Part shown: positions 10,907 through 32,735 of the stretch, piece after piece
How the letters are laid out: each line of letters starts with the position of its first letter
Numbering within the stretch: the first letter of the stretch is position 1
From: an uncultured Chloroflexia bacterium
Lineage (GTDB): Bacteria > Chloroflexota > Anaerolineae > Anaerolineales > UBA11858
Assembly (NCBI GenBank): GCA_963827805.1
Contig: CAWHCC010000003.1
Span: 491,186-555,185, forward strand
Direction of reading: 5' to 3'
DNA: 64,000 bases
The notes under the pieces: model-generated
Database searches by the model: none
Told to the model about the DNA's origin: nothing
The model's input: the letters and a program-made list of their open reading frames with translations, nothing else
Position numbers and translations under genes: made by a program

Positions 10907-10962
10907 TTTCATCCTATCACAATGGACAAGGTAACTCTGTGTGTACATGAAACTATGAAACT

Positions 10963-11015
10963 TAAAATCCGCCGGTAGCAATACCTTGTGGGTTCGACCC
11001 CCACCCGGTCTACCT
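10963..11015 (+). repeat. tRNA-3'-end-like module, copy A (GNRA hairpin + T-arm + acceptor-like tail)
   Basis: TAAAATCC..GGTAGCAATACCTTGTGGGTTCGACCCCCACCCGGTC: 37 nt (10974-11010) are identical to 32649-32685. It contains a GGTA-GCAA-TACC hairpin and a GTGGG-TTCGACC-CCCAC T-arm. Confidence 0.7.
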
Positions 11016-11020
11016 AGAGT

Positions 11021-11056
11021 AAAAATGGTGATCGCTGGCCAGCGATCACCATTTTT
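11021..11056. terminator. Bidirectional rho-independent terminator
   Basis: It is a perfect 18+18 palindrome, AAAAATGGTGATCGCTGG/CCAGCGATCACCATTTTT, with A/T runs on both sides. It lies after the tRNA-like module (+) and after the HD-GYP gene (-). Confidence 0.7.
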
Positions 11057-11177
11057 ATCCATTACTTTAGAGAATCCTTTGGGGTAATTGAAGATGCTGA
11101 CTTTGATGCTTCTAAAACAAATTTACCATTGTTGGGGCAAATTCAAGCTCTGGAAAAATGCGATCACAACTTTAGGA

Positions 11178-13070
11178 TCATAAAGGGTTCCCGCATTTTT
11201 TTTTAATTTCATCTATCACATCAACAAGTTCCAGCGGTTTTTTATACGGTCGTTCATCCATCATCGCCGAGAATGAGTCCACTACACTGACAATACGTGC
11301 CCCGAGTGGAATTTCTTCTTTGGCAGCCCCATGTGGATACCCAGAACCATCATATCTTTCATGGCTGTATTCAATAATTGGAGCAATATGTGTTAATTTT
11401 TTGATGGGTGAAATCATCTCTGCACCCATTTGTGGATGCCGGTAGATGATTTCCCATTCGGCCTCTGTCAAGGTTGTCGGTTTTAATAAAATCGCATCCG
11501 GAATACCAATTTTCCCAATGTCATGGAGTAATCCACCCCAATAGATGGCGTCAATATCTTCTTGCGAACATCCTAAAACCCTGGCTGTCTCGGCTGCCAT
11601 ATTCGCGATTTGCTGGCTATGATCACTTGTGTAGGTATCTCGAACATCAATTGCATTTGCGAGCGCAACAACAGTCTGTTCAAATGTATCTTCAAGCTCT
11701 TCGTATAACCTTGCATTCTCAACCGCAACGGCGGTCTGATTCGCCAATGTTGTCAATGTCCGTTGATCGTCTTGGGAAAAGGATTCCGCAGATTTTTTTG
11801 GGCCAACTGTCATAACACCAACCAAATCCTCTTTGGCGAGCAAGGGGATGTATAACTCTGCCCCAAGATTATCAAGGGTCTCGCGTTCTCTTACCCATAG
11901 AGATTTAAAAAGAGGGGAGATATTTAGAGTTTGCTTGGTAAGTACCTGTTTATTTTGACTGAGCCAGGATGCAATCGGATGATCTGACCTAATATTTTGG
12001 GTAATATCGTCATCGAAACCAATCTCATCTAGAACTTGAAAATTTCCATTTTGATTTTTCCTAATAAACATCGCTGCAGATTCAAGCTGCAGGACATCGA
12101 TGACTTCAGATAAAATAACATTCGAGATCTTGTCTAAATCGAGGAGAGTGGCCGTCATTTCACTAAGCCGTTGGAGCATTAGACTAGCGTTGTACTTTTC
12201 TCGATAGAACAGACGGTCGATCCAGGTTTGGGCAAAATTCCTTAATGGATCGAATAAAACCGCAAATAGGATCGCGATTAGTATCGAAACAAATAAAACA
12301 TCACCCGTTTGCTGTGGTTGGAAAATTCGAATCACAATCGATATGCTTAGATAATAAATAGCTCCAAGGACCCCGGTCGTAACTGTATAAAGCAAACCAG
12401 CTCGGATTACGAGGCGAATATCCAATAATTGATGACGCAGGATTGCATATGCAATCAGCAAAGCGGAAATACCATTCGCAGTGATATCGATGGGGTATTT
12501 CCCAAGTGGTGTAAAATTGGCTATTGTTCCGAGGATGATGATGAGCAGGCCGAGTATAAGGTAACGAAATCGATTACGCTGAACTGGATTATCAATTTGA
12601 CGGTAACGTGTGATTAATTCCCCTAGTTTTATAAATACCAACGCATACCCCGGTAAAGCGACAAAAACTATCGTTGGATTTAACACATAATTAAGCTCAC
12701 CAGATTCATTTAGAAAAGCACCTTTTGCTACAACATCCGTGAAGATAGTTAGGATTACTGCAAAAATTCCATACCAATAAACCAAGGGCGCCCAGCGGAG
12801 ACGTCTAGAAAAAAGTGTTTCGATAAAATAAAATATGCTGATCCCCATGGTTATTCCAGCCGCCGACATCAACCTGAACCAAAATAAAGTACTCCCCAAA
12901 CCTGTTACAACCAAAAACGCACTTGCAGACCACACGAACATGGTCAACAGATAGATAGAAAATGATTCTCGCAACTGTGTCCGAGGTTTTGAAGTAATCA
13001 CCACGACAAACAGCACCCCGTATAAAATAGATGCCGTTATCGAGACGATGGCTGTGATTCCTGAACTCAT
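11178..13070 (-). CDS. Membrane-bound GAF / HD-GYP domain protein (cyclic-di-nucleotide phosphodiesterase family)
   Basis: About 260 aa of multi-TM N-terminus is followed by a central GAF-like region. The C-terminal part has LLHDIGKIGIPDAILLKP and YSHERYDGSGYPHG (HD-GYP signature). Confidence 0.85.
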   Translation of the reverse strand: MSSGITAIVSITASILYGVLFVVVITSKPRTQLRESFSIYLLTMFVWSASAFLVVTGLGSTLFWFRLMSAAGITMGISIFYFIETLFSRRLRWAPLVYWYGIFAVILTIFTDVVAKGAFLNESGELNYVLNPTIVFVALPGYALVFIKLGELITRYRQIDNPVQRNRFRYLILGLLIIILGTIANFTPLGKYPIDITANGISALLIAYAILRHQLLDIRLVIRAGLLYTVTTGVLGAIYYLSISIVIRIFQPQQTGDVLFVSILIAILFAVLFDPLRNFAQTWIDRLFYREKYNASLMLQRLSEMTATLLDLDKISNVILSEVIDVLQLESAAMFIRKNQNGNFQVLDEIGFDDDITQNIRSDHPIASWLSQNKQVLTKQTLNISPLFKSLWVRERETLDNLGAELYIPLLAKEDLVGVMTVGPKKSAESFSQDDQRTLTTLANQTAVAVENARLYEELEDTFEQTVVALANAIDVRDTYTSDHSQQIANMAAETARVLGCSQEDIDAIYWGGLLHDIGKIGIPDAILLKPTTLTEAEWEIIYRHPQMGAEMISPIKKLTHIAPIIEYSHERYDGSGYPHGAAKEEIPLGARIVSVVDSFSAMMDERPYKKPLELVDVIDEIKKKCGNPL

Positions 13071-14686
13071 AAAGTTTTGCTAGATGACTTTATCGATAGA
13101 AGTTTTTCCATAATATGATCTTTTGGTTGCATATGAGGGGGCTTGTAATGACCCAGATCCGCTCCTGCTTTTTGTTGTGCCTCCATATAAGCGGAAAACG
13201 AACCAGGTGTAAGAAGCGATACTTTCAAAGGATTATGATTTAACATTAATTTATAATCCTGAAATTCAGTTACTTGTCGTGATAAATGTTTGTCTATTAG
13301 TTCATACACTCCAGATTCAGAGCTAGGAGCCCCGGGATTCAACTCGAGGTAGATATGCAAAATTGGGTTGTCTTCGATAATCTCTTTTCTGGCGACCCAA
13401 TCGAAATAAATGATACCTGTTTCTTCGATCGCTTTCCAAATATCCTTCTCTGAAAAGCGAACCATGCTAGCAATATCAATTATGTCGATATCTCGTGAGT
13501 AGTATCGGACTTGAGGAAGAGTGCTCTTGATTTCTTCATCTCCAATAGAGATGACCTCAAACATATCTCCAACTCTATAACGCATAAATATTCCCCCATG
13601 GAAATTGCTAAAAACCAGCTCATAAATACCCACCTCTAGTTCGTCGAAAAGTACAGTCTTAACAGGGTGATCTGGATCCTTTTCTTGCTTGATGAGATCC
13701 TCCATGGGAATAAACTCCAGAAAACAGCAGTCTGGGAAAAAAGTCATCCCTTTAAAATTCCAGGATTGCATGCACATTGTTCCAGCTTCCGTGCTGCCAT
13801 AGCCTTCTAATGGCTCTAATCCCCAATAATGTTTGATTTTTTTACGATAAATTTCCGTGTCAGTTCCCCCTGTCATTACCCCTTTCAACTTCCAAATGTC
13901 TTTTGGTAGTAAGTTATTATTGTTAAATTTCGATTTTAATAGTGCTTTTATCAATCTCCATAACACGTATGGATTCAAATGCTGTAAGGATAACTTAGGA
14001 CTATTATTATTTGAAGATTCTTCAAATTGAGCACCTACTCTTGCCAACACACTTGCAATACCATAAAAATAGTCTACACCTTCTCGCATGGCCAAATTGA
14101 ATCCTGCCGCGATCCGTTCAGCAAAATCCATATTCTCACCTTCTTCTAAAGATGGTAAAAATTTCACATCCAACTGATCGTTTGTTGCCCGAGAAACATA
14201 ACCGGATATAAACGGGGGAGGAGCTGTAGCCAGGAGAATCCTATCATTCAATTGTAATTTGACATCTCCCGGTTCTGAACAAGCTGACATCATCATCGCT
14301 CCGATTACTGAATCAGCTAACCGATCATAAAATTGTTTTGTAATCGGAATCCATTTCGGGCCACCTCCGGAAGACCGGCCAGAAGTACGTCCCCAGTCAT
14401 ACGGTTTAACCGGAAGCACATCCTCATTCTTTCCAGAAAGCAAAGGTTCATAATCTGGGTATGTCGTCAATGGCACAGTTTCCCGAAATTCATCAACCGT
14501 TTGTGGAATCTGATCGCCTAAAATCGATTTGCCAATTTCCGATGATCCTAACAGCGTTAGCTGTTCGAACAACAATCGTTTTTGGATTCCCATGAACTCT
14601 GGTAATGTAAGGTGGATATATCCGCAATACATCTCCCAAAGCTCTGATTTTCTACCTTCTCGTAACATTTTGCTGGCTTTCTTCAT
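13067..14686 (-). CDS. GH3-family (ANL-superfamily) acyl-adenylate-forming enzyme
   Basis: GH3-like motifs are TSGRSSGGGPKWIP, EGYGSTEAG and RYRVGDMFEV. The length is 539 aa. ATGA overlaps occur with both neighbouring genes. Confidence 0.65.
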   Translation of the reverse strand: MKKASKMLREGRKSELWEMYCGYIHLTLPEFMGIQKRLLFEQLTLLGSSEIGKSILGDQIPQTVDEFRETVPLTTYPDYEPLLSGKNEDVLPVKPYDWGRTSGRSSGGGPKWIPITKQFYDRLADSVIGAMMMSACSEPGDVKLQLNDRILLATAPPPFISGYVSRATNDQLDVKFLPSLEEGENMDFAERIAAGFNLAMREGVDYFYGIASVLARVGAQFEESSNNNSPKLSLQHLNPYVLWRLIKALLKSKFNNNNLLPKDIWKLKGVMTGGTDTEIYRKKIKHYWGLEPLEGYGSTEAGTMCMQSWNFKGMTFFPDCCFLEFIPMEDLIKQEKDPDHPVKTVLFDELEVGIYELVFSNFHGGIFMRYRVGDMFEVISIGDEEIKSTLPQVRYYSRDIDIIDIASMVRFSEKDIWKAIEETGIIYFDWVARKEIIEDNPILHIYLELNPGAPSSESGVYELIDKHLSRQVTEFQDYKLMLNHNPLKVSLLTPGSFSAYMEAQQKAGADLGHYKPPHMQPKDHIMEKLLSIKSSSKTL

Positions 14687-15426
14687 GGCTCTCCCTCGAT
14701 GGATTTTTCTGCATGGATAATCAGTGCACTTGGTATCCAGAAGCGTTTTGTTTCTAGTTTAACAATTGAAATATTCTTAAATTCAAAATATTTTAATAAG
14801 ATGTTCCATTCTTTTTTAGATCGCACATTTGAAATTGCATCTGCTTCTGCCCATGCTCGATTTGGGCTTTCCTGAAACAGATAATAAATAAAAGCAAATA
14901 TTCTGAGAACCCGCTTTACACCTGGGAGCTTCCAAAGATTAGAACTTCCAACATCAGCAAATGCTAACATACCGCCAACCCTCAAAATACGATGGACTTC
15001 ATACAAAAGACGCTCAACATCCATGTGGTGGGTTGCCAGGCCACAGAAAACCAAATCATAAGTTTTCGCGGCGTAAGGCATTTCCATTGCCGATGCGCAA
15101 GTAAAGTCAATGGTTGTTGGAGATTTGCTTTGTTGATATAAATGATTTGCTCTGATAAGCATCGAATGTGTGATATCTAAACCATGAATTCGATAGCCAT
15201 TCTCTCCGATCTCCTTTATCATTCTGGGGATCTTACCAGTTCCCGTGGCAATATCTAGGATATCAAAATCCTCTTTTATTGGTGTCAAGCGAATGAGTGT
15301 ACGGATAAATTCTTGGTAACTCCATCCCCAAAATCTCTGCAATTCAAGGTTAACAGTTTCCTCATAATTTGGAGTCATCTCCGTAAAGGTTTGAATAATT
15401 TTTTCTTTATCATCCATGACGGTCAC
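14683..15426 (-). CDS. Class I SAM-dependent methyltransferase
   Basis: Motif I is ILDIATGTGKIP. The downstream YDLVFCGLATHHM and GGMLAFAD stretches are typical of the Methyltransf_11/UbiE-like fold. Confidence 0.8.
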   Translation of the reverse strand: MTVMDDKEKIIQTFTEMTPNYEETVNLELQRFWGWSYQEFIRTLIRLTPIKEDFDILDIATGTGKIPRMIKEIGENGYRIHGLDITHSMLIRANHLYQQSKSPTTIDFTCASAMEMPYAAKTYDLVFCGLATHHMDVERLLYEVHRILRVGGMLAFADVGSSNLWKLPGVKRVLRIFAFIYYLFQESPNRAWAEADAISNVRSKKEWNILLKYFEFKNISIVKLETKRFWIPSALIIHAEKSIEGEP

Positions 15427-15571
15427 TTCATTGTATAGAATGTATCACATCTCAAGCATAAAGTTAAGATAATGGTAGTTATAGGAATTCTTCCTGATCG
15501 ATCATCGAGAATACCCGCCCTAAGGTATCATTCGAAGGGATACCCTTGGGTAGAAACAGATACTGCTGCAA

Positions 15572-15769
15572 TCAATTAAGGTTCTGATAGCCGATTTGCT
15601 CGATCTCGGCCCAACCATCGGCCCCACAGATGGTACCCAAGATGGCGATCGTGATAATATCAAACAACTGGTGTGTTACGTTTGGTCCTCTTGCGTCTGT
15701 TACATTGGAAAAATGCTCTGCGAAACTTCCAATCGGCTCTGTTTCCACGGTAATCCTCCTGATTCTCAT
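15572..15769 (-). pseudogene. ISAs1-family transposase N-terminal fragment
   Basis: FAEHFSNVTDARGPNVTHQLFDIITIAILGTICGADGWAEIEQ closely parallels the N-terminus of the ISAs1 copy at 17526. Only 65 aa remain. Confidence 0.7.
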
Positions 15770-16039
15770 TGGATTACTATGATCTCATTTTTTTATATGC
15801 GGTTGCCCTATAATTATAAACATTACAATAATCAGGTTTGGGTCATAAACGAGGGCCTGATGGACTATGTTACTCAGCAACGGATTTCGTTCATGAACTA
15901 CCGTATTCTATGACTGCAAGATTTGTACCCGTTGAGCCTAGATTTGTTTTAAATTTATGATCACGAAATCCGTCGATGAGGATTTCCAAAAAAAGTGGTT
16001 TCTTTCCACCCCAATGTAAAAACATTCCGATAAACTTAA

Positions 16040-16067
16040 TAAACAAAAGCGCGGGGTTTTCCGCACT
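16040..16067 (-). terminator. Putative rho-independent terminator downstream of the small ORF
   Basis: The minus strand reads GTGCGGAAAACCCCGCGC followed by TTTTGTTTATT. This is an imperfect GC stem plus a T-run about 40 nt after the stop at 16108. Confidence 0.4.
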
Positions 16068-16107
16068 CTTGTTTACTCGACACAAATTTTGTTTATTTCG
16101 TTAGTGA

Positions 16108-16257
16108 TTAATTTATCCCGAAATTTGATACTAGTATTATACCAACAACGATGAGGAAGACGACATTGAAGCCAGCAAAAATAATTGTAGCTAAAAACTT
16201 GGTTGTGCCTTTTATTTCACCAACCATATTATCAATTGGATCGCCGTTGTAATTCAT
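16108..16257 (-). CDS. Candidate 49-aa single-pass membrane peptide
   Basis: It is below the track's size cutoff. My translation is MNYNGDPIDNMVGEIKGTTKFLATIIFAGFNVVFLIVVGIILVSNFGIN*. GGAGAG lies 6 nt upstream of the ATG and a terminator-like hairpin lies downstream. Confidence 0.35.
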   Translation of the reverse strand: MNYNGDPIDNMVGEIKGTTKFLATIIFAGFNVVFLIVVGIILVSNFGIN

Positions 16258-16487
16258 TTTATCTCTCCATTATGTAAACCCAACAAATTTCAAATCCTGT
16301 TATCAATTTTTTGGTATCGAACTTTCACTACATAGAAAATTATATAGGTGGATACCCTGAAAAGATCATGGTTGTCCCGTCAACGGTTGGTAGCTCGCCT
16401 TACAATAATGTTAGGTATTCGAAAGGGTTGATATTGCGCACGATCGTGATTGTCGATCAAGAGGAGCCCAACACATTTTGATTTCAG

Positions 16488-17036
16488 CTAAGATATTGTG
16501 GGGTTACCTGTAAGCTTACATGAAAAATTCTTGGGCGCTAATCTGGCGTAGATCATAAACCAAAGCATGTAAAATGTTCTAAACACTTCATTTGAGACAC
16601 AATGGACTAAGAACCTGTGTTGGACACGCTTTGTCAAGAGTAAAGAAAGCTCTCCGGGTTTGGTTTCGAAACGCATTATGGCTTTCCCGGGACACAACGC
16701 GCGCTTCGGCGCAATATACTATCTCTACATAGTATAGCCACCCGTATAACCTACGGCTTCGATTTCCCGCATGATCACCACTGCATTCCACACTCCTTCT
16801 GACAGCAAGCGATCGATGGTAGGTTTGTAAGGTTCCAGTTTACTCGGTTGGCATTTCCGTTTCTTTTCAGGTGCACCTGCGCGTTTCAGCGCCCGGCTGA
16901 CCGTTTTAGGATGCACCCCAAGTTCTTCATCGATGTCTTTGAGATAGACACCCCTGTCTTTCAATGTTTTAATCACGATATAGTCCTCCTGATTGAGCAT
17001 GTTTTTGTACCTCCGAATTGGTGATTTAGGGTACAT
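16488..17036 (-). pseudogene. IS21-family IstA transposase remnant (HTH region plus degraded continuation)
   Basis: ORF 16725..17036 reads DYIVIKTLKDRGVYLKDIDEELGVHPKTVSRALKR...KLEPYKPTIDRLL...EIEAVGYTGGY (IstA N-terminus). The shifted-frame continuation RFETKPGE lies in ORF 16488..16697. No DDE core is present. Confidence 0.6.
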
Positions 17037-17060
17037 TGTATGCGCGATTTGGGGGACTTC

Positions 17061-17420
17061 TTACCACCGTTCCTGACACCGTTTCTCTTTGCGTTTCTTC
17101 GATACATAGCAGTGCACGCTCAATTCGCTACCGGCATAGCCCTGTTCCTGAAATGCCTGGTAGATTTTGTGGGCCGTGTATCTTTGTTTGCGCGGCAGGC
17201 TCTCGTTTTCTTCCAGCAACCGTTCAATCTCATCCTTGTAGGGACCCAACACCGGCGCTGCCCTCGGCTTGCTCAGCGAGTAGCTCTCCACCTCCGCCGA
17301 TCCCAACGCTTTCTTGATGGTTTTCGGTGAGCGATGGTATTCTCGAGCAATTTGGCGGATCGATTTGTTTTCGTTGAAATAGGCGTTGCGTATCTCTGCG
17401 CGGCCTTGCACTGCAATCAT
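17061..17420 (-). pseudogene. Second IS21-family IstA N-terminal fragment
   Basis: EIRNAYFNENKSIRQIAREYHRSPKTIKKAL...VLGPYKDEIERLLEEN...TAHKIYQAFQEQGYAGSELSVHCYV shows the IstA N-terminal architecture. It is truncated at 119 aa. Confidence 0.6.
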
Positions 17421-17525
17421 CTCCTGTCTCCATTACCTCTAAGGGGTTCCCTACATAGTAATTAGGGCAATCCCATGTAAAAAAAGCTGAGATAATGGTA
17501 ATCCAGAAAAAAACGGAGGATTACC

Positions 17526-18686
17526 ATGGTAGACAAACCGCTAAGCAGCTTAGCAGAGCACTTTTCCAACGTAAAGGACCCGCGAGGGCCAAATATCGAG
17601 CAGCAACTCTGCGATATCATCGCGATCGCCATCTGGGGCACGATCTGTGGCGCAGATGGTTGGGTTGAAATCGAGCAATTCGAACATCAGAAGCTGAAAT
17701 GGTTGAGCCAGTATCTGCAGCGAGGAAACGAAATTCCAGCGCATGACACCTTTAGGCGGGTGTTTTTACAGATTGAGCCCGAAGAATTCCAGGCCAGTTT
17801 CATGAAATGAGTCCAAGCCTTACATCAAGTCACCCAAGGACAGGTGATCGGGCGGGCTGGTAAACAATTACGTGGCTCACATGATCGCAGCCAAGGTAAA
17901 AGGGCGATCTACCTGGTGAGTGCCTGGGCAGAACAGAACCATCTGGTGCTGGGGCAGCGTCACGTGGCTGAAAAAAGCAATGAAATCACCGCCCTCCCGG
18001 ACTTGTTACGCTTGCTGGAGATCACAGGCTGCCTTGTGACCATCGATGCCATGGGCACCCAGACCAAGATTGCGAAACAGATCATCCAGGCGGAAGGTGA
18101 TTATCTCCTGGCGGTCAAACACAATCAAGGCCAACTCTACCGCGACCTGGAAATCTTATTCTCCTATGATCAGCAGCAGGACTTTCAAGCCGCCCCTTAT
18201 GATTATGCTAAGGAAGTTAAGAAAGGTCACGGACGCAGTGATGTGCGAGAGTGTTGGGCCACCTCCGATCCCGCATATCTGCAAAGTGTCACTTAGGCTC
18301 AGAAGTGGTCCCATCTGCAAAGCATCATCATGCTGGTCCGCCGCCGCATCATTGCTGGCGAGGAAACCGTCAAAACTCGTTGCTACATCTCTAGCCTGCA
18401 GCCCGATGCCAAACGGATCCTGAAAGCCTCTCTCCAACACTGGTCCATCGAAAATGGTCTCCACTGGGTGCTGGATATCGCTTTCAACGAAGATCTCAGT
18501 CGCGTTCGCAAAGAGCATGCTCCCGCTAATCTGACCGTCTTACGCCTTATGGCTGTCAACCTGCTCATATCATCCCAATGCTCTTACGGGAAACAGGAGA
18601 CTTCTGCCAAAGGCAGCATCAAAGCCAAACGCTTGCAGGCTGGTTGGAATGAAGATTATCTGCTTAAGGTTCTTTCTGGGGCATAA
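17526..18686 (+). pseudogene. ISAs1-family transposase with two in-frame stop codons
   Basis: Three ORFs (17526.., 17844.., 18330..) are all in the same frame. They are separated only by TGA 17808-17810 and TAG 18294-18296. ISAs1 hallmarks present: VSAWAEQNHLVLGQ, EKSNEITALPDLL, VTIDAMGTQTKIA, HWSIENGLHWVLDIAFNED. Confidence 0.8.
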
Positions 18687-18769
18687 TATGCGCTTGCCCT
18701 AATACGACAGATGGATTCGTGTAAGTTTGTAGGGAAGTATGGTGATGGCAGCAATTCATTCACAAATAG

Positions 18770-18778
18770 TGCTAAAAT
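18770..18778 (+). promoter_or_regulatory. Possible extended -10 element (TGCTAAAAT) for the TIR cassette
   Basis: TGnTAAAAT lies about 30 nt upstream of ATG 18810. I found no convincing -35 element. Confidence 0.3.
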
Positions 18779-18809
18779 ATCCTTATAAGCTTTCACAAAG
18801 GGTGAAGAT

Positions 18810-19412
18810 ATGGCGTATGAGTATGATGTTTTTCTAAGCTATAAGCGAGAGTTTGCTGAAAACTGGCTTACCGAGATTTTCCTGCCACGTTTTCGTTTTT
18901 ACCTGGAAGATCACCTGGGTGCACCACCAAAGATTTTCATGGATACATCTGGAGGTATCCGTTCTGGGGATGACTGGGAGTTGCGGTTGAGGTATGGGCT
19001 ATCAAGATCCAAGTGTTTGGTCGGTATCTGGTCGCCATCTTACTTTCAATCACGCTGGTGCCGCTTTGAATGTGAAGTGATGCTAGAGCGTGGCAAACAG
19101 CTTGGCTATCACACAGAAGAAGATCCTTCTGGCATTGTGCATGGTGTTGTTATCTCGGACGGACGAAATTTTCCAGAATATGCACAACGAATACAATATT
19201 TCAATAGTCGCAAGTATATGCTTGATGGTGGGTTCTACAAAGACACACCTGATTATGTCGAGTTTCAACATGAGCTAAGAACCTGGGTTGAAGATGTTGT
19301 GGAAAACATCTTTGAGAAAGTGCCACCCTGGTCAGAAGATTTTACTCAGATACCTGACAACACAATTGAAGTAAAACCGGTCGAGCATGTTAATCAACCG
19401 GTGATGGGGTAA
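18810..19412 (+). CDS. Stand-alone TIR-domain protein (200 aa) with uncharacterised C-terminal half
   Basis: YDVFLSYKREF forms the TIR betaA strand. A DW motif is present, and SPSYFQSRWCRFECEV matches the S-x-W-C-x-x-E segment that carries the catalytic Glu in NADase TIRs. The RBS is AGGGTGA. Confidence 0.75.
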   Translation: MAYEYDVFLSYKREFAENWLTEIFLPRFRFYLEDHLGAPPKIFMDTSGGIRSGDDWELRLRYGLSRSKCLVGIWSPSYFQSRWCRFECEVMLERGKQLGYHTEEDPSGIVHGVVISDGRNFPEYAQRIQYFNSRKYMLDGGFYKDTPDYVEFQHELRTWVEDVVENIFEKVPPWSEDFTQIPDNTIEVKPVEHVNQPVMG

Positions 19413-19418
19413 TGAGCT

Positions 19419-20762
19419 ATGGGTCAAATTATCACATTTTATTCATATAAAGGTGGGGTCGGTAGGACGATGGCACTTGCCAATGTGTCTGTTATTTTGG
19501 CAAAGTGGGGTTATCGTGTGCTGGTAGTTGATTGGGACTTGGAAGCCCCTGGTCTGGGTTACTTCTTCAAGAATTATGTAAATCCCGATGAATATCAGTA
19601 TATGCGAGAGCAAGCTGGCATTGTTGATTTGCTCATCCAATACTTAGGAGAAAATTCATCCAGCCTGGACTATGTTGCTGCTCCATTCAACGTAGAAAGC
19701 GTGAATAATAACCCGATCCATTTTATTTCTGCCGGCAGACGAGAAGGGGACCGCAGTCAATACCTGAGCAAGGTTCGGCAACTGGATGTCAGCGATTTTT
19801 ATCAACATAAACGGGGTGGATTGTTCATTGAAGAGTTGCGTAACAAATGGAGGGAAGATTACGATTTTGTGCTAATCGATAGTCGGACCGGAATCACGGA
19901 TATCGGTGGTATCTGTACCATCCAACTTCCTGATAAGTTAGTTATGTTGTTTGTGGCGAATAAACAAAACGTAAACGGAACTGTTGACGTGTTTCGCAGA
20001 GTCAAAGAAGCCAGATATGAACTGCCGTTCGATCGTCAAGCGCTAGTTTCTGTTCCTATAGCTACCCGATTCGAAATCACTGAGTATAAGTTATCCCAAG
20101 AGTGGCTGGATTTGATCAATGAAGCTATGGAACCGCTATACTCAAACTGGTTACCAAAAAAAGTGGAATCCAAAACAATGCTTGAGCGTACCAGAATACC
20201 TTATATCCCGTATTTTGGTTTTGGAGAAAAGCTTCCTGTCATTGAGCAAGGTACAGATGACCAATTGAGTCTTGGCTATTCCTATGAGAGTTTGGCTGCA
20301 CTACTCGGGAATAACCTGACTGATGTGGACCAATTCACCCGAAGAAGGGATACCTACCTTGAAGCGGCCAGGAAGAAAGAAGTCTCTGTCTTTATCAGTT
20401 ATTCTCGAAAAGATAGAGATTTTGTCACCATGTTAAGTGAGGATTTGAGGAAAAAGGGTATCAATGTATGGATCGATAGTTCCATTGCAGGTGGAGAGAG
20501 TTGGCGGAGCACCATAACAGAGAATTTGGTGAAAGCGAGTGATGTAGTAGTCGTATTATCCTTTAGCGCTGCGGCATCATCCTGGGTTCAACAAGAAATC
20601 TCAATAGCTTATTCACGTGACAAGAAAATGATCCCTGTTTTGATCGATGATTTGCCACCCAATGAGATTCCTATATCCTTACAAGATTTCCAGTTGATTG
20701 ATTTTCGGCAGACACCTTATGAACTAGCGTTCAGAAGGTTGTTGACCAGTCTACAAGGCTAG
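19419..20762 (+). CDS. ParA/MinD-like P-loop ATPase with deviant KGGVGR Walker A, fused to a C-terminal TIR domain
   Basis: The N-terminus has ITFYSYKGGVGRTMALANVSVILA, VVDWDLEAPGL and the Walker B DFVLIDSRTGITD. The C-terminal ~125 aa reads VSVFISYSRKDRDF...INVWID...SSWVQQEISIA (TIR with conserved Glu). It starts 6 nt after the upstream stop. Confidence 0.8.
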   Translation: MGQIITFYSYKGGVGRTMALANVSVILAKWGYRVLVVDWDLEAPGLGYFFKNYVNPDEYQYMREQAGIVDLLIQYLGENSSSLDYVAAPFNVESVNNNPIHFISAGRREGDRSQYLSKVRQLDVSDFYQHKRGGLFIEELRNKWREDYDFVLIDSRTGITDIGGICTIQLPDKLVMLFVANKQNVNGTVDVFRRVKEARYELPFDRQALVSVPIATRFEITEYKLSQEWLDLINEAMEPLYSNWLPKKVESKTMLERTRIPYIPYFGFGEKLPVIEQGTDDQLSLGYSYESLAALLGNNLTDVDQFTRRRDTYLEAARKKEVSVFISYSRKDRDFVTMLSEDLRKKGINVWIDSSIAGGESWRSTITENLVKASDVVVVLSFSAAASSWVQQEISIAYSRDKKMIPVLIDDLPPNEIPISLQDFQLIDFRQTPYELAFRRLLTSLQG

Positions 20763-20967
20763 GCTAATTTGTTGCAACCGTTTCGATCGTTGTCCAAACT
20801 CCGACAATGGAACAGCTAAGTAATTGCTCATTTTGGTGCAACCCTTGTAGAGAACAGAGAGTTTGGTAGAGTGCTGTAAATAATCTGTTGGGCGGACGGA
20901 CTAAGGGTGAAAATAATGAAGACCATCTAGCCCAGTTTATTTTTCTGAAATGAGAAACTCAGGCTGT

Positions 20968-20985
20968 TTGTCTCAATTGAGACAA
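20968..20985. repeat. Perfect 18-bp palindrome TTGTCTCAATTGAGACAA; third half-site at 21043-21051
   Basis: Read directly from the sequence. It lies between the TIR cassette and the 3' end of the IS4-like pseudogene. Confidence 0.7.
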
Positions 20986-21037
20986 GTTGGTGTGATGGGC
21001 AAAACATGCTATTAAGTGGGTGTAATCTCGCAATTAC

Positions 21038-22275
21038 TTACGTTGAGACAAAAGTTCGGACATTGCCATAAACGAGTATCGGGATGAGGCCCAAGACCGC
21101 CTGGGCGATGAGTGCGAGAACTTGATCAGGCAGCTTGGGTTTTTGGATGAGGAAAACAAAAGGACCAGAGTAAAGCCGCCATTTGCGATGTTGAGAAATT
21201 TGTTCAAGGACTTCACCAAAGAGATTTTCTTGGACTTGTTGGGGATCGAGTTTGCCATCGGTGACATCTCTTTGAGCTTCACCAAAGAGCAAGGCGATGA
21301 TAAAGGCATTTAAGGTGAGGGCGATCATCTTTTCGAGATAATCCCGGCGTTTGTTCATCAGTTTAGGCAAATGCAACGGGTCTTTACAATGTCGGAAAAG
21401 TCATTTAGATTTTCATGCGATTTAGGAAAATCTGGAGGGCTGTTTTAGGTTCCAGACTGGAAATCACTCATAAGGAGTTACTCATGCCTTTGCGCCAGTG
21501 GCCAATCAGATTGACGGGCACCACACCGAGATAAAAACCTGCCAGTGGATGACGGTCTTACCCGGACGCACAAACAGCTTAATGGGATTACCCTCGGCAT
21601 CGATCAGACGCGGTTGTTTGTGCTGATCCCCCAGATTCAAGCGGATCACAAACTGGATCTGCTCGCTATACAAGCGCTCCATCAGGGCGCGGTAGCCAAA
21701 CTCCCGGTCCAACACCAGGGGTCTCTCTCCCAAGAGCTCTTTCACGGCTGCAAAACAGCGCGTATGCTCCTGGTTGCGCGAAGTCACCTGCTCTCCGATG
21801 GTTTTCGATGAATAAGTGATGAAATGGAAGGGGATCGCCCGGCCCCGAAAGGGGGTCGACAGGGCCAACAACCAATAACCAGGTGTTTGACCATCCGCAA
21901 GGGTGCCCACATAGGCGGTTTTGGGGGCCTTGTACCTCGCCATCTCCGTCGGATCTCCGATCACAAAAAGTCAGCCTCCTCCTGATACAGGCGCAGCAAG
22001 GCGGCCTGCACATCGGTCTGGCTGATGAAACGCTGGATCGCTTGGTAGTTGCTTTCACTCTGACCTGCCATTTGCTTTGCAATGTTCGTCAGCCGGGGTG
22101 ATTTGGCTGCGAGGATCGTTGGCCCGATCTCGCCACCTTTCTCCGCTTGCTTTTTATCATCGATTAGGTAATGCATAATTTCAGCATAGTTGATAAACTT
22201 GTTCATGGAAGTCTCCTTTCTGAGATACCTGGCTAGGGTTTTTCTCAGTTTAGAGGCTTCCGCTTCTTTTTTCAA
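21038..22275 (-). pseudogene. IS4-superfamily-like DDE transposase, fragmented into three ORFs
   Basis: The three ORFs are 21961..22275, 21506..21964 and 21038..21376. The junction reads ...YQEEADFL*/(V)IGDPTEM across a T5 run. A LVLDREFGY DDE-like motif is present, and there is a second disruption between 21376 and 21506. Confidence 0.6.
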
Positions 22276-22419
22276 TACCTTTGTCCGGACCTAAGTCCTA
22301 AGATAGGGTCAAGATCTATACGGTCATGAATTATATGCCCACCAACCAATCGAACTCGATGCATTTGAATATGCAGCCCGTATTCGTAACGGATTAATTG
22401 CAGAAAACTGGAGCACAAA

Positions 22420-22724
22420 ATGAATCAAGAGAAGATCAAATCACGTCTTGTAATTGAATTTGGTTACGCCGAGAGTGGTGCCACATTAGTGTCAACACAA
22501 TTAATGAACTTAACAACTGATATTAGAAAAGCTTTTGAAAGTTATTGGAGTTCAAATGTAATTCCAGATTTAGAATTGGAAGGTTATTCTCTTAAGGGGC
22601 TAATGAAAGAAATATGAATCCTTTTGCGGCGTTTCTTACTTTGGATTGGCTTGCTAGAGAACCGGAGAAAGCAAAAGTATCTTTAGCAAGAGGTTATGAT
22701 TCTATAGGCAATCCTGAAGGCTAG
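22420..22724 (+). pseudogene. Small hypothetical gene split by a frameshift at about 22612
   Basis: The 65-aa ORF ends ...GLMKEI*. The +1 frame continues NMNPFAAFLTLDWLAREPEKAKVSLARGYDSIGNPEG* (stop 22722-22724). Confidence 0.4.
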
Positions 22725-22830
22725 ATTATTTTGGGAAATATTCGTGGTTCGCCTAGACACATACTAAGATCGTTCGCGCTATGCTAGTTCTTCTGTAAGT
22801 CCAGAAGGAATGGGACATTTGGATAAGTTA

Positions 22831-22990
22831 ACTATTGGAGACTTCTCAGCCCTACGAGCTGGTTATACACCGACAAGAAATAAGTTCTGTTGGCAGCGTA
22901 AAGCCATGGTTTTTTGTTTGATTTTGTCTCGTACGGACTGAGCCTCCTTTTCTTTTCCAAAATAGAAGCAGGTGTCATATTATCCAATAA
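22831..22990 (-). pseudogene. Second remnant (3' end only) of the rve-type IS seen at 4684-5300
   Basis: About 160 nt are alignable by eye with 4684-4845, for example ATACACCGAC..A.TAAGTTCTGTTGGC.GCGTAAA.CCATGGTTT and GATTTTGTCTCGT. It encodes only ...NMTPASI.. of the transposase C-terminus. Confidence 0.55.
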
Positions 22991-23167
22991 ATACAAAGGA
23001 CGCCTTTTCAGATGCACTCATAAATTATATTGTTTTCGGTGCTATCTCGGTTAAAATTGCTCTATTAGCAAGACAGGTGGGTATGTCATTCCTTCTTCAT
23101 GCTTGCTGCAGTTTTGTTGCAGATAGATCAACAAAGCATGGATACATTCGATTGAATGGATAACTAA

Positions 23168-24149
23168 CCGGATGTGCAAGTATTAAACTACGAGTTTAGC
23201 CAAATGGAGCGGTGGCAGCTCTGCTTGGCAACAAAATAGAACGGCAATCGTATGGCTTAAGAGCTTGCGCATCCACCGAGAAGTGAGATGCCAAGCATCC
23301 CGAGCCCAGACTTTCTTGATATGAAATCGATCCACGAGTTGTCCAATCACGGTTTCAATCCGATAACGCATGTGTGTCAGCTGAAGCGGAAAACGAAAGG
23401 GTTCACGCTGCGCGCTGCGGAAAGGTGTCACCAGGCCCAAACCGCGCGCTTGCAGGGTTTCCTGCAAAGCAGGTTTCCAATAGTTGCGATCACCCAGCGC
23501 CCAACCGCGACAATCAGAGAGCAAGGTTTCGGCGGCGACGGTGTCATGCACATTGGCCAGGGTTACCCGCACATCGGAGATCACCCCAGACCAACGGAGA
23601 CACGGGTGTACCCGAAAGCCATCATAGGTCTGGCGCGCCACTTCATCATGACCAAAGGCCGCCTGACCTTGGAAACTTTGACAGCGTGGGACCCGGGCAA
23701 AGCGACACACCGGCACCGGAAAGCTGTCGATGACCGTAATCAGATCATCCTGCGGCACCTGGTTGACCAGGGCTTGCCACAGTTCCCGTTTCACGAACCA
23801 CAGGTTGGCCGCCGGTCGCAAAAAAGTCGTGCGGTGAATACGCCTCAACTCGGGAAACAATTCTCCAAAGTGCCTGCGGAAGTAGCGGTACAGCCCACTG
23901 TCCGTGTCGAGGCCCATGAACTCGCCGACCACTTCAATGGTCAGCACTTCCGCATCACTCAGCCTCGGTTGCAGACCCCGCGCGCGCAAGCGCCGGTCGC
24001 CTAACCAGTTGTCTATCAGACAATAAACGCTGACCAAAAAAGTGGTAATATCCATGGCAGAGACCTCCAGTTAGATGTTTGGATTCGACACCTAATTTCT
24101 AACGGTGGTCTTTATCTTATGTCAAGGTACTTGAAAACTTACACATCGG
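23168..24149 (-). mobile_element. IS982-family insertion sequence (apparently intact, ~982 bp)
   Basis: Imperfect terminal inverted repeats are CCGGATGTGCAAGTATTAAACTA (23168-) and the reverse complement of GGTACTTGAAAACTTACACATCGG (-24149). The interior is visibly more GC-rich than the flanks. Confidence 0.75.
23183..24055 (-). CDS. IS982-family transposase
   Basis: Matching features: VIDSFPVPVCRFAR, ANVHD, LGDRNYW, YRIETVIGQLVDRF. The 290-aa length is typical of IS982. Confidence 0.8.
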   Translation of the reverse strand: MDITTFLVSVYCLIDNWLGDRRLRARGLQPRLSDAEVLTIEVVGEFMGLDTDSGLYRYFRRHFGELFPELRRIHRTTFLRPAANLWFVKRELWQALVNQVPQDDLITVIDSFPVPVCRFARVPRCQSFQGQAAFGHDEVARQTYDGFRVHPCLRWSGVISDVRVTLANVHDTVAAETLLSDCRGWALGDRNYWKPALQETLQARGLGLVTPFRSAQREPFRFPLQLTHMRYRIETVIGQLVDRFHIKKVWARDAWHLTSRWMRKLLSHTIAVLFCCQAELPPLHLAKLVV

Positions 24150-24386
24150 GTTAATTAAGCTTTAATGCCAGCAAACTCCATCCGTCGTGCTATCTATTAG
24201 TCCCCAGCATAAATTCCAGCGATGGAAGTATAAGAATTATAAAAGATACGTTACCATGATAAACAAAAACATGGATACAAAAAAATTATTACACCTTAGG
24301 GCAGTATTTCAGGAAAAAAATATGCTATAGTATATTTGTCCAGACAAGCGATCTCGTTCATTCTCAGAATTCAGGGTCAAGTTTCG

Positions 24387-28344: not shown

Positions 28345-28355
28345 CTCTAATCCTC

Positions 28356-29630: not shown

Positions 29631-30638
29631 TCCCGCAGCTTCTTGCCAGTCAGGTGCAAGAAGACGCTTTCCAGATTAGGCTCCAGTGTTTCAATCGACA
29701 CCAGACGCAGATCACGTTCATTCAAGAAGGCGATCAGCTCGACCAAGGCCAGCTGACCGTTTTCGCATTCCACTTTGACGATTGTATGATCCGACTCTGC
29801 TGGCGTTTCGAGGGCTTTCGTTTCCTCAGGGCGTTCCCCAACTGGAAATGGAAGCTCCGGACGCCAGGCTGGCCTGTTTGACCGCTGGCAAAGCGCTGAT
29901 TTGCGCCAGCAGTGCATCATCGACCTTCTCCAAGCCCAGATTGATCACGCCGCCCCCTAACATGGCAATAAGGTTCTTGATCGTATCCAAGGCGATGATC
30001 TCTCCCTTGTCCACAATGGCAACCCGGTTACAGAGCAACTCGACCTCTTCCATATAATGGCTGGTGTAGATAATGCTCATGCCGCGCTCCCGGTTGAGTT
30101 GCAGCACGCTCTCAAAAATCTGGTTGCGGCTTTGGGGATCCACACCTACGGTGGGTTCATCGAGGAAGAGTAGGCGGGGTTCGTGGACCAATCCGGCGGC
30201 GATATTCACTCGGCGCTTCATGCCACCGGAGTAGTTTTCAACCTTTTCGTTGGCGCGCTCTTTGAGAGCCACAATTTCCAGCACATCTTCCACGCGTTTC
30301 TTGAGATCACTCCCTTTCAACCCATAGATGCGGCCAAAGAAATTCAGGTTGGCGCGTGCATTCAGGGTGGGGTAAAGTGCCAAATCCTGCGGCACCAGAC
30401 CGTTGACTTTTTTGACTTCCTTGAGATCCGTCTTTAAATCATAACCGCCCACCCGGGCCGTTCCAGAAGTCGGCTCCAGCACACCGGTGAGCATCGAGAT
30501 AGCCGTGGTTTTCCCAGCTCCATTGGGACCCAGTAAACCGAAAACTTCGCCTTCTTCAACCTCGAAACTGACTCCATTGACGGCCGTGAAATCCCCAAAT
30601 TTCTTGACCAGATTATCAACTTCCAATATATGCGGCAT
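29627..30638 (-). CDS. ABC transporter ATP-binding protein, frameshifted around 29830-29880
   Basis: ORF 29826..30638 has Walker A GPNGAGKTT, the signature YSGGMKRR and Walker B LLFLDEPT. The conserved C-terminal domain (...LVSIETLEPNLESVFLHLTG) continues in another frame as ORF 29627..29920. Confidence 0.8.
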
Positions 30639-30739
30639 CAGAATTCTCCTTTCACTTGCATCTGAACTATTAGCGATTGGCTTTTTTCACCACTATCAAT
30701 TTAGCAAACGGGAGTCAAGCTGTCATCTATCGGAAGGTT

Positions 30740-30789
30740 GATTTAGGGGGTTTATTCTGCCTTCATAGTTGAAATAAACCCCCTAAATC
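30740..30789. promoter_or_regulatory. 17-bp perfect inverted repeat in the divergent intergenic region upstream of the ABC-2 operon
   Basis: GATTTAGGGGGTTTATT (30740-30756) is the reverse complement of AATAAACCCCCTAAATC (30773-30789), with a 16-nt spacer. The outer CATCTA/TAGATG at 30724 and 30805 extend the symmetry. Confidence 0.5.
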
Positions 30790-30994
30790 TATCGAATGGT
30801 AGATGACCTCCACAGCGTTGCTCGTTAAACTATAAGCAGAACGCCCAAAAACACAAATTGTAGGTTGCTATGTCGGACTCAAAAGAATCATCTACCAATT
30901 GGCTTCAGCGGATAACCTTTGAAAATCCTAACTTAACTGCTCTTGCGCTAATGATCATCGCGCTATTCTTTAAAAATGGATCGCTACCTTTATC

Positions 30995-31345
30995 TTGCGG
31001 TTAGATGAGCGCTGGGGCGAGATCATCCTTTCCAAGGCACTGGGATCCATCCTGGTGATCGTATTTATATGGTTGATACGGCACAAGTTGAAGGATATCT
31101 GCTTGCATTCCAAGAGGATCGGTCAAAGTCTCTTGATCGGGGCTTCCATCACAATCATTGCATTCCTGGTTAGTTATGGAATGGATGCTGGCATGATGAT
31201 CCGAATGCCCATATTTACCAGCCTAGCCTTGCTATCGATGTATATCGTCAAATTCTTGGCAGAGAAATTCCAGATGGATGAAGTCCAACCCTGGCAAACG
31301 ATCTATCAAAATGGTGAGCAAAAGCGAGTTGTCAATCAAACATAA
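30995..31345 (+). CDS. Hypothetical membrane protein, possibly a fragment of a CPBP-type protease
   Basis: It has three hydrophobic segments and no EExxxR motif. An upstream 43-codon ORF (ATG 30869) in another frame may be its displaced N-terminus. Confidence 0.3.
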   Translation: MRLDERWGEIILSKALGSILVIVFIWLIRHKLKDICLHSKRIGQSLLIGASITIIAFLVSYGMDAGMMIRMPIFTSLALLSMYIVKFLAEKFQMDEVQPWQTIYQNGEQKRVVNQT

Positions 31346-31398
31346 TTGTCATGATCTAAATTTTCAAAGTTTTATTGAAAATCTAAAAGGAGAAACTC

Positions 31399-31998
31399 AT
31401 GAATAAATCACGTGCAATTTGGGGTGTCATTTGTCTAGCCCTCTCAGGGTTACTGGCGGTTTTGTATTTTAGGCTGCCTCCCGAAGATTTGATGTTCACC
31501 GTAGGGAACCAGAATATGCCCTGGGTTCCACCTGTTATTCTGGGCGTTCTAGGATTAATCCTCTTGGGCAGTTCCATAACCGGGGGTTCAGCCACAGATC
31601 AATCCGCTAAAAAAAGGGAAATCGTCATCGATCCTGAAAAAGTCGCCGTCAACAAACGCCTGGAAACGATTTGCTGGGGCTTGTTTCTGATCATGCTGGG
31701 CGGCTTTATGTTCGTGCCCGAAGAGTTCATCAAAAGGGGCTGGTGGTCTATTGGGATTGGCCTGATTATGCTGGGGTTGAATGTAGCACGTTATGTCAAT
31801 CAGATCAAAATGAGCAGTTTCACTACCTTTTTGGGGATTCTCTCCCTGGCCGGCGGTATTGCGCAGGTAGCGGGTTGGTCCGCGCTGGATGACGCGCTCT
31901 TCTTCCTTTTGCTGGGTGGCTTTTTGCTCATCCGCCCAATTTTTGATAAGAAAGGTCGCTTCGGTAAAGCCGAAGAAAGCATGGAAAACCCCTCCTAG
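31399..31998 (+). CDS. Hypothetical integral membrane protein
   Basis: The 199-aa ORF has GGAGAA upstream and about five predicted TM segments. No motif is recognisable. Confidence 0.55.
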   Translation: MNKSRAIWGVICLALSGLLAVLYFRLPPEDLMFTVGNQNMPWVPPVILGVLGLILLGSSITGGSATDQSAKKREIVIDPEKVAVNKRLETICWGLFLIMLGGFMFVPEEFIKRGWWSIGIGLIMLGLNVARYVNQIKMSSFTTFLGILSLAGGIAQVAGWSALDDALFFLLLGGFLLIRPIFDKKGRFGKAEESMENPS

Positions 31999-32006
31999 GA
32001 GACCCT

Positions 32007-32225
32007 ATGCCATCATCCGTAGAAATCATAATTCAAGGGCACCTGGATCCCGATTGGGCAGATTGGCTGGAGGGTTTCACAATCACGCATTCAGATAATG
32101 AGGAAACCATCCTGACCGGTACCGTTGACGATCAAGCCGCCCTCTATGGCATCATGGCTAAACTGCGCGACTTAGGGGTAAAACTAATTTCGGCTAATTT
32201 TTCTAATCAATTGCTTGATACATGA
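32007..32225 (+). CDS. Small hypothetical protein (72 aa)
   Basis: It starts 8 nt after the upstream stop. The sequence is compact and non-repetitive (IIIQGHLDPDWADWLEGFTITH...ALYGIMAKLRDLGVKLIS). Confidence 0.5.
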   Translation: MPSSVEIIIQGHLDPDWADWLEGFTITHSDNEETILTGTVDDQAALYGIMAKLRDLGVKLISANFSNQLLDT

Positions 32226-32540
32226 GCACTGGTTTAGTCCGAGCATCTTCTTTGCCTGTCAGAATTCCAAACAGAGAGGTCGGAAAAGGATGTAACCAGG
32301 AACGATTGCATTCACATTATTACGGAAACCGTGCCAGAATATAATATTTCAAAGATTTTTTGACCAATCAATATCCCATCCAACTCTAATCCAAAGTGTT
32401 GATCTGGGTAGAGGTCTGCAAAATAAATCCAGTCCAATTAGGGATCCCTTATGAATACGTTAAAATAATCTGGATATGCTGTTCTAAACAGTATGTTGTT
32501 AGGTCAGCAAATCATCAATCAAATTGAGATTTTTAAAAGT

Positions 32541-32562
32541 TTCTGCGAGCAATTTGCGAGCA
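32541..32562 (+). repeat. 22-nt motif TTCTGCGAGCAATTTGCGAGCA, copy B
   Basis: It is identical to 7395-7416 and lies about 26 nt upstream of the predicted -35 box. Confidence 0.8.
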
Positions 32563-32587
32563 GATTGTGTAGTTTTTTTATAAACCA

Positions 32588-32616
32588 TAGACACGGTGGA
32601 AAGATTTCTGTATAAT
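32588..32616 (+). promoter_or_regulatory. Predicted sigma70-type promoter (TAGACA - 17 nt - TATAAT)
   Basis: The -35 box is at 32588-32593 and the -10 box at 32611-32616, with exact 17-nt spacing. No protein-coding ORF follows. Confidence 0.45.
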
Positions 32617-32622
32617 ATCGAC

Positions 32623-32735
32623 GACTATGCGCAAGAATAAAATCCAGCGGTAGCAATACCTTGTGGGTTCGACCCCCACCCGGTCCACTACCAGATTTCA
32701 GGGCTCCTCATGAGAGGAGCCCTGTAATTGTTTGT
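32623..32735 (+). ncRNA. Candidate ~105-110-nt small RNA containing a tRNA-3'-end-like module (copy B at 32638-32690)
   Basis: The promoter lies upstream. Internally there is a GGTA-GCAA-TACC hairpin and a GTGGG-TTCGACC-CCCAC T-arm-like hairpin followed by CCGGTCCA. It ends in the terminator at 32699-32724 plus a T-rich tail. Confidence 0.35.
32699..32724 (+). terminator. Rho-independent terminator
   Basis: CAGGGCTCCT-catgag-AGGAGCCCTG forms a 10-bp GC-rich stem followed by TAATTGTTTGTTTG. Confidence 0.6.

Follow-up and report, generated by a model that had tools for sequence, protein, structure and literature searches.

Short direct repeats that resemble the 3' half of a tRNA lie near 11.0 and 32.6 kb in a 64-kb stretch of DNA (the window) from an uncultured bacterium of the Anaerolineales. 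A first reading of the letters alone, which we call the original prediction, had described a ~50-nt sequence present twice on the same strand with a 37-nt perfect core, each copy followed within 10 nt by a different strong terminator, and had taken the pair as the attL and attR sites of one accessory segment inserted by an integrase.

The 37-mer GGTAGCAATACCTTGTGGGTTCGACCCCCACCCGGTC is found at 10974-11010 and at 32649-32685, each time on the + strand, and nowhere else in the window; 100 dinucleotide-preserving shuffles hold no match to it with up to three mismatches allowed. A repeat finder delimits the copies as 51-nt repeats of 94% identity (10963-11013 and 32638-32688), in agreement with the first description; compared directly, copy 1 and copy 2 are identical at 50 of 52 positions with one 3-nt gap near the 3' end. 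Both terminators are also as described, the hairpins lying 4-9 nt 3' of the copies, a different one for each. The hairpin after copy 1 (11019-11058) has a perfect 18-19-bp stem, is bidirectional and is situated at the 3' end of a convergent HD-GYP operon, while the one after copy 2 (32699-32724, assigned to neither strand) has an 11-bp stem with eight G-C pairs at the 3' end of a convergent ROK sugar operon.

The repeats derive from tRNA-Leu(UAA). The 23-nt T-arm/acceptor stretch, used as query for genome, viral and metagenome contig scans, has no match in the representative genomes of 185,579 species (GTDB), one match in viral contigs and seven in metagenome contigs. Six of these seven are unrelated tRNA-Lys or tRNA-Ile genes that have the T arm alone in common, and only one, in contig L005, contains the full 37-mer. 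It is an intact tRNA-Leu(UAA) gene, called by ARAGORN as complete, 87 nt long, with the sequence GGACCGGTGGCGGAATTGGCAGACGCAGCGGACTTAAAATCCGCCGGTAGCAATACCTTGTGGGTTCGACCCCCACCCGGTCTACCA and the anticodon at positions 35-37. In BLAST alignments, copy 1 (10960-11014, + strand) is identical at 55 of 55 positions to tRNA positions 32-86 of this gene, from the base before the anticodon loop through A73-C74-C75. Copy 2 (32638-32690, + strand) starts at U34 of the anticodon and matches positions 35-82 at 46 of 48 bases (32638-32685); it is slightly decayed, with two changes in the 3' strand of the anticodon stem and a 3-nt indel near the 3' end. Given the location of the anticodon, both fragments start in the anticodon loop, 3 nt apart (tRNA positions 32 and 35), and both reach the tRNA 3' end, spanning the variable arm, the T arm and the acceptor 3' strand. 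Both copies are genuine tRNA-Leu(UAA) 3' fragments. The fold that had been drawn on paper, a GNRA-capped variable arm followed by a T arm and an acceptor 3' strand, is correct and collinear with this class II tRNA.

Neither fragment belongs to a functional tRNA gene. ARAGORN reports no tRNA or tmRNA in the window, and Rfam returns nothing at gathering score over the window and only meaningless hairpin matches at E≤10 around either copy. The original prediction had noticed that a 5' acceptor strand, a D-arm and an anticodon arm are missing, and a search of the window by exact matching, matching with three mismatches, short-word BLAST and regular expressions indeed uncovers neither a 5' half nor a partner for the acceptor, D-arm or anticodon stem. 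A complete cloverleaf cannot be drawn at either copy, the bases upstream being unpaired with the 3' strands of the acceptor and the anticodon stem. The full-length tRNA that the ARAGORN and Rfam runs had been recommended to find exists, outside the window, as the metagenomic gene in L005. The 3' flank of copy 2 aligns, if weakly, with the flank of that gene, and because of this copy 2 would fit the original chromosomal 3' part.

Two of the tRNA genes met in these scans deserve a brief description. In the L005 gene (1802-1888 of its contig), a G1-U72 wobble pair tops the acceptor stem, and a frameshifted zinc-finger-type transposase gene lies ~90 nt 3' of the tRNA, after a perfect 15-nt palindrome pair. 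In a phage contig (L001, IMGVR_UViG_3300032309_001546), a cluster of phage tRNA genes includes one at 5769-5850 for an 82-nt tRNA that has CAT as its anticodon and a long variable arm; the T arm and acceptor 3' strand of this tRNA agree exactly with copy 2 over 26 nt. An attP site was not found in viral contigs with the 23-mer, the arm block described below, the variable arm/T arm or the anticodon-stem/variable arm as queries; these scans gave only unrelated phage tRNA genes (L001 and L082) and one coincidence in a coding region (L083). In the plasmids of PLSDB, neither flank was matched.

Upstream arms and an interposed IS1111-like element

The similarity between the two copies continues upstream of the tRNA-derived part, interrupted at copy 1 by an insertion sequence (IS) at 7482-10922. 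After removal of this IS in silico, the sequence upstream of copy 1 was compared with that upstream of copy 2, and 7368-7419 aligns to 32511-32565 with 78% identity (E=1e-7). The repeated unit is thus larger than the ~50 nt first noted, which hold for the tRNA-like part, and includes an upstream arm of ~55 nt. The arm of copy 1 (7368-7481, + strand), now separated from its tRNA fragment by the IS, contains two direct TGCGAGCA boxes at 7398-7405 and 7409-7416, and the arm of copy 2 (32511-32565, + strand) contains them at 32544-32551 and 32555-32562. These boxes, 11 nt apart, make up a 22-nt block, TTCTGCGAGCAATTTGCGAGCA, that is identical between the arms (7395-7416 and 32541-32562). For the octamer TGCGAGCA, 2.1 occurrences are expected in the window and seven are observed, four of them in the two arms.

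The spacers between arm and tRNA fragment are poorly conserved, with a length of ~72 nt in copy 2 and ~100 nt in copy 1 after IS removal. What remains between the IS end and the fragment of copy 1 (10923-10959, + strand) is not tRNA-derived: it has no tRNA match and shows weak similarity to the spacer of copy 2. The latter (32566-32637, + strand) holds a sigma-70-like promoter, TAGACA-17-TATAAT (32588-32616), that points toward the tRNA fragment and is near consensus (11 of 12 positions). Its -10 element ends 21 nt before the fragment and the terminator follows 9 nt after it; judged by these signals, a ~100-nt RNA would be produced. In both copies the order is the same: the arm and its phased direct repeats come first, then a spacer, then the tRNA-Leu 3' part and last a terminator of its own. 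The shared unit is compact (~150-200 nt).

The IS between arm and fragment of copy 1 (7482-10922, - strand) is an IS1111-like element of the IS110 family. Its transposase open reading frame (ORF; 10844 to 9798) has the Pfam domains DEDD_Tnp_IS110 (PF01548) and Transposase_20 (PF02371), and its ends (10922 and ~7482) were set by alignment with four metagenome copies (L009-L012, 84-94% nucleotide identity). A 9-bp subterminal inverted repeat, GAAAGCGTT/AACGCTTTC, lies 12 nt inside each inferred end. The transposase gene is followed by a long non-coding region, which measures 307-548 nt in the relatives. DEDD transposase, downstream non-coding region and subterminal inverted repeats place the element in the IS1111 group, in line with the published layout of that group (PMC11187229). 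The non-coding region is interrupted by a nested IS1182-like DDE element (~7950-9735, + strand), with an ORF at 8040-9686 (548 aa; Pfam DDE_Tnp_1_6 and DUF772). Its terminal inverted repeats (7969-7986 and 9703-9720) agree perfectly over 18 nt, and 9736 and 7743 are the points at which homology to the IS110 copy of L009 is interrupted. This nested insertion has probably inactivated the guide RNA region of the IS1111-like element.

The metagenomic relatives of the IS show a similar setting. In L009, which comes from a different metagenome, the IS body is 93.8% identical to that in the window and sits in a homologous arm, TGCAGGCAGTTTGCGACCA. The equivalent flank in L010, L011 and L012 has two to three direct repeats with a period of 11-12 nt (TGTGCAAT; TGGTGCAGATT), so that all four copies adjoin phased direct repeats on one flank, an association that is biased by ascertainment because these loci were found via the IS. 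The other flank in L011 is a tRNA-Lys(CUU)-like 3' part, CTCTTAATCGTCTGGTTGAAGGTTCGAGCCCTTCCGGGGTCA, followed by a terminator; by eye, it starts at about the anticodon loop and the bases upstream do not pair with the 3' strand of the anticodon stem. L012 has the same tRNA-Lys(CUU)-like flank, its contig stopping within the fragment, and in both loci the IS lies ~80 nt from the fragment. No complete tRNA gene is called by ARAGORN in L009-L012. The architecture of arm, spacer and tRNA fragment occurs with at least two different tRNAs.

Past the tRNA-Lys fragment of L011, at ~120-260 nt, there are more hairpins that resemble T arms, for example TTAACGGTTCGAGTCCGTTAA, which may form an array of several tRNA scars.

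Two simple roles for the IS in making these structures were considered and rejected. The IS did not cut the tRNA in the anticodon loop, as 37 nt of non-tRNA spacer separate its end from copy 1 and its other flank is the arm, not a tRNA 5' half. Nor does the arm belong to the IS: copy 2 has the arm without the IS, the subterminal repeats are symmetric at 12 nt inside the IS ends, and between the window and L009 the arm is much less conserved than the 93.8%-identical IS body.

Origin of the tRNA fragments

What placed two tRNA-Leu(UAA) 3' parts behind homologous arms? We think it probable, though some way short of assured, that both copies are displaced tRNA fragments, attR-type scars left by related integrative elements at tRNA-Leu(UAA). 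An integrative element that carries its own tRNA 3' part would recombine with the gene inside the anticodon loop; the tRNA gene would be regenerated by the element's copy, and the displaced old 3' part would end up at the far end of the element, right behind its P arm. Two related elements with the same arm sequences, two 8-bp boxes one helical turn apart at ~75-120 bp from the crossover, would have done so in two events, either one after the other at a single tRNA gene, building a tandem array, or at separate times. Many IS insertions and rearrangements would later have removed the integrase genes and the intact tRNA gene from this neighborhood or separated them from it, one IS1111-like element inserting in the arm of copy 1.

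The break points no more than 3 nt apart, the retention of the 3' part in both copies and the homologous arms before both argue for a site-specific process by one family of elements. The IS-rich nature of the region and its mosaic composition were also counted in favor of scars. In lambda-like att sites, arm-type sites for integrase or excisionase lie ~75-120 bp from the crossover, and by analogy the TGCGAGCA boxes, at such a distance from the anticodon-loop junctions, are putative protein-binding arm sites.

The original prediction, that duplicated tRNA 3' halves are attL and attR of an integrase-mediated insertion, was probably right in seeing integrase-type scars of a tRNA 3' end and wrong in pairing them. 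In both copies arm, tRNA 3' part and terminator follow each other as in a displaced fragment, and neither is a regenerated tRNA gene; the two are not an attL/attR pair. The arrangement could instead be a tandem array in the order intact tRNA gene, younger island, copy 1, older island, copy 2, in which case the interval from 11.0 to 32.6 kb can be the older of two islands. Such an array needs an intact tRNA-Leu gene to the left of copy 1; either this gene lies beyond the window, or the array has been broken by IS-mediated rearrangement.

Structures of this kind are well documented. Of the 3919 islands mapped in the Islander survey, 3760 show a 3' fragment of a tRNA gene and 2083 an anticodon-centered attP; tandem arrays are recorded there, and the anticodon loop, the T loop and the T/acceptor junction are listed as the known crossover subsites of attachment sites in tRNA genes (PMC4383910). 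Islands and prophages of tyrosine integrases in that survey share several features with our locus: the 3' tRNA fragment is directly oriented and has a junction centered on the anticodon loop, an element-side arm lies beside the fragment, and the DNA alongside is variable and rich in defense genes and IS. Both of our copies are near-identical to part of a real tRNA gene, and both have the junction at a known crossover subsite with the 3' part retained; a 3' tRNA fragment with an anticodon-loop junction after an element arm is the textbook structure of a displaced fragment. In contrast to Islander islands, both repeats are fragments with no regenerated gene, an intact cognate tRNA gene at the other island end is absent from the 64-kb window, and there is no integrase gene inside the island. 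The locus would fail Islander's filters because neither an intact cognate tRNA gene nor an integrase is within reach.

Partial tRNAs scattered in islands that lack integrases have been described as remnants of older integrations (bioRxiv 10.1101/2020.12.28.424599; PMC9897764) and are common enough to contaminate tRNA gene catalogues (PMC9897764). The tycheposon islands of Prochlorococcus likewise contain several same-strand partial tRNAs separated by cargo DNA, where successive integrations are taken to push older elements inward and older ones to lose their integrases (bioRxiv 10.1101/2020.12.28.424599). Our case differs in lineage (Anaerolineales) and target (tRNA-Leu(UAA)), in that the anchoring full-length tRNA is missing from the window, and in that one intervening operon looks widely conserved and unlike typical cargo. 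A comparable case is Dehalococcoides, whose islands have repeated ssrA ends alongside. The kind of feature is common and known; this instance is undescribed but ordinary, and here decayed. What is striking as a repeat in the raw sequence resolves into a standard scar of genome plasticity. It points to this stretch of an Anaerolineales chromosome as an old hot spot for integration at tRNA-Leu(UAA), overrun by IS at a later time. For annotators, it is a caution that such tRNA sequences are partial and non-functional, and the shared 22-nt arm offers a handle for finding integrase elements of this lineage.

Several observations weigh against displaced fragments as the explanation. The window contains no intact tRNA-Leu gene or 5' half. 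Pfam scans for recombinases covered the ORFs between 643 and 45493 and, at 4635-7480, 15427-18809, 20763-24335 and 30639-32640, the six-frame segments from stop to stop with a length of 50 aa or more; no tyrosine or serine recombinase domain was found, and the only mobile-element proteins were transposases (IS3-like, IS110, IS1182-like, ISAs1-like, IS21-like and IS4/IS5-like). An integrase or a remnant of one is absent to the left of the interval, inside it and up to 13 kb to its right, which agrees with the original prediction. With copy 1 still identical to the functional tRNA, the event would have to be recent even though the surroundings are heavily decayed. The TGCGAGCA boxes are arm sites only by analogy. 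The operon next to copy 1, a methyltransferase (MTase)-GH3-HD-GYP operon, is conserved as a unit elsewhere without an adjacent tRNA, and the genes to the left of copy 1 at 969-4634 look ordinary chromosomal ones. Finally, no empty site appears among the recovered relatives, the closest of which, over the ROK operon, have only ~74-77% nucleotide identity (L013, L077 and L078). Synteny with these three ends exactly at the ROK stop codon, beside copy 2; they have their own terminators after the ROK operon and no tRNA-Leu at the ROK end. This loss of synteny is compatible with a variable junction and was itself counted in favor of scars, but at such a divergence it does not amount to proof of an insertion.

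Among the rival explanations, the one that survives best, although we regard it as unlikely, is that arm, spacer, tRNA fragment and terminator form a small dispersed repeat without an integrase of its own and unrelated to island boundaries, for example the end of another mobile element or a preferred landing pad of IS1111-like elements. The compactness of the shared unit, the similar phased direct-repeat arms beside all the related IS copies in L009-L012 and the lack of an integrase nearby would agree with this; the second of these points, however, suffers from the ascertainment bias mentioned above. There are, moreover, just two copies in 64 kb, the 23-mer is absent from all the representative genomes, and the sole full 37-mer among the seven metagenome matches is an intact tRNA gene. 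The spacers differ between the copies in length and sequence, unlike those of a transposing unit. We disfavor a dispersed repeat because public data hold no further copies and the spacers vary.

It is rather improbable that the units are functional genes for tRNA-half-like small RNAs, decoys or regulators kept by selection. Copy 2 has the near-consensus promoter and a strong terminator 9 nt after the fragment, copy 1 is identical to a functional tRNA over its 55 nt, and both regions fold well below shuffled controls (z ~ -4.2 to -4.6). Most of this low folding energy, however, is owed to the inherited T arm and the terminators. A comparable + strand promoter is missing at copy 1, whose upstream region is broken by the IS, the changes in copy 2 would disrupt the native anticodon stem, and no Rfam family is matched. 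Bolder still, and correspondingly doubtful, is a combination in which tRNA-half-like small RNAs were born of att scars (Leu-UAA, and possibly Lys-CUU in L011), with the phased boxes as operators and an RNA-guided IS1111-like clade homing there.

The view that IS insertion or deletion truncated two paralogous tRNA-Leu(UAA) genes independently has very little left to recommend it beyond the density of IS in the region, the end of the IS1111-like element 37 nt from copy 1 and the IS that closely follows the intact gene in L005. Those 37 nt are not tRNA, the other flank of the IS is an arm, copy 2 has no adjacent IS, and random truncation predicts neither break points within 3 nt of each other nor homologous arms; junction sequences, spacer and arms together effectively exclude it. 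Least credible of all is that the tRNA-Leu(UAA) is split or contains an intron and that the fragments are its 3' exons, which we reject on the junction sequences and the lack of an intron and of a 5' exon. Group I introns of this tRNA classically sit between U34 and A35, almost exactly at the start of copy 2, where homology begins at U34 (3 nt earlier in copy 1); copy 2 also has its own promoter. But Rfam finds no group I intron in either of the searches given above, the base preceding the fragment, which would be the final G of such an intron, is T at copy 1 and A or T at copy 2, the leader would be only ~15 nt, and the window has no 5' exon.

Members of the IS1111 family are known to target recombination sites of other elements, as the IS1111-attC group does in integron attC sites. 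IS4321 and IS5075 in the terminal repeats of Tn21 are likewise IS1111-family elements in recombination sites of others. The IS by copy 1 has the DEDD domains, non-coding region and subterminal repeats of this family (PMC11187229) and apparently sits within the recombination-site arm of another element, with its relatives beside similar arms. The target would differ in being the P arm of a tRNA-integrating element, for which we know of no description in this family, and comparison of the non-coding region of the IS with its flanks gave no convincing guide-to-target match. Viral contigs hold no relatives of its transposase. The clade may be one of RNA-guided IS that target the att arms of tRNA-integrating elements; should IS1111-like elements recurrently sit in such arms, this would be a new target class for RNA-guided IS1111/IS110 recombinases, and the association may prove a more useful lead than the tRNA scars.

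The interval between the fragments and its flanks

The DNA between the fragments had been proposed to be a single accessory segment, which is only partly supported. Parts of it are variable, IS-rich and island-like, but as a whole it is a heterogeneous mosaic that includes an operon kept in relatives. A comparison of composition, recommended at the outset, shows that GC content varies from 0.40 to 0.53 across the interval, with ~0.40 at 11-17 kb and ~0.52 at 24-30 kb. For three proteins, the IS110 transposase, the ROK kinase and the HD-GYP protein, every named homologue comes from Anaerolineales or Chloroflexota.

The MTase-GH3-HD-GYP operon lies directly to the right of copy 1 (11178-15426). 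Its relatives in L079-L081 have the same three-gene unit in other genomic contexts, with 70-76% amino-acid identity; in one of them the operon is preceded by housekeeping genes (RuvB, QueA and UPRTase), and in none of the three does a tRNA adjoin it. The HD-GYP ORF (11178-13070) encodes 630 aa compared with 646-667 aa in relatives, and as translated homology runs on in another frame to 11132, the sequence suggests a frameshift near the 3' end of the gene (11132-11209).

The remainder of the interval is more island-like, with a pair of TIR and ParA-TIR genes, a MalT-like regulator, an ABC-2 exporter and several IS remnants. The pair (18810-20762) encodes a TIR-only protein of 200 aa and, next to it, a 447-aa fusion of a ParA-like ATPase with TIR. 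The fusion protein matches the PADLOC candidate PDC-M28B (2e-30) and ThsB-like TIR models; on the strength of these matches, the pair is a candidate two-gene anti-phage system. Between the operon and this pair, inverted partial copies of the N-terminal part of an ISAs1-family transposase (15484-15759 and 17515-17790, arms 71% complementary) surround IS21-like HTH remnants, and an ISAs1-like transposase is split into three reading frames (16728-17432; 17502-18683). A 118-nt direct repeat (82% identity) links 4698-4815, at the edge of an IS3-like remnant, with 22847-22964, near an IS4/IS5-like transposase at 23183-24055, and is probably a shared IS end.

The 11 kb to the left of copy 1 contain IS debris, then genes for an FGE-sulfatase, an Mrp/ApbC protein and a GAF histidine kinase. 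The kinase appears to be split by a frameshift, its GAF and HisKA_3 domains (969-2375) and its HATPase_c domain (643-984) lying in overlapping ORFs on the same strand. To the right of copy 2, two tandem paralogous genes for periplasmic sugar-binding proteins (40451-42704) carry repeats of 300 nt and 192 nt that lie ~1012 nt apart, and a ~200-nt periodic repeat (53315-54400) runs within large ORFs at 52108-54941.

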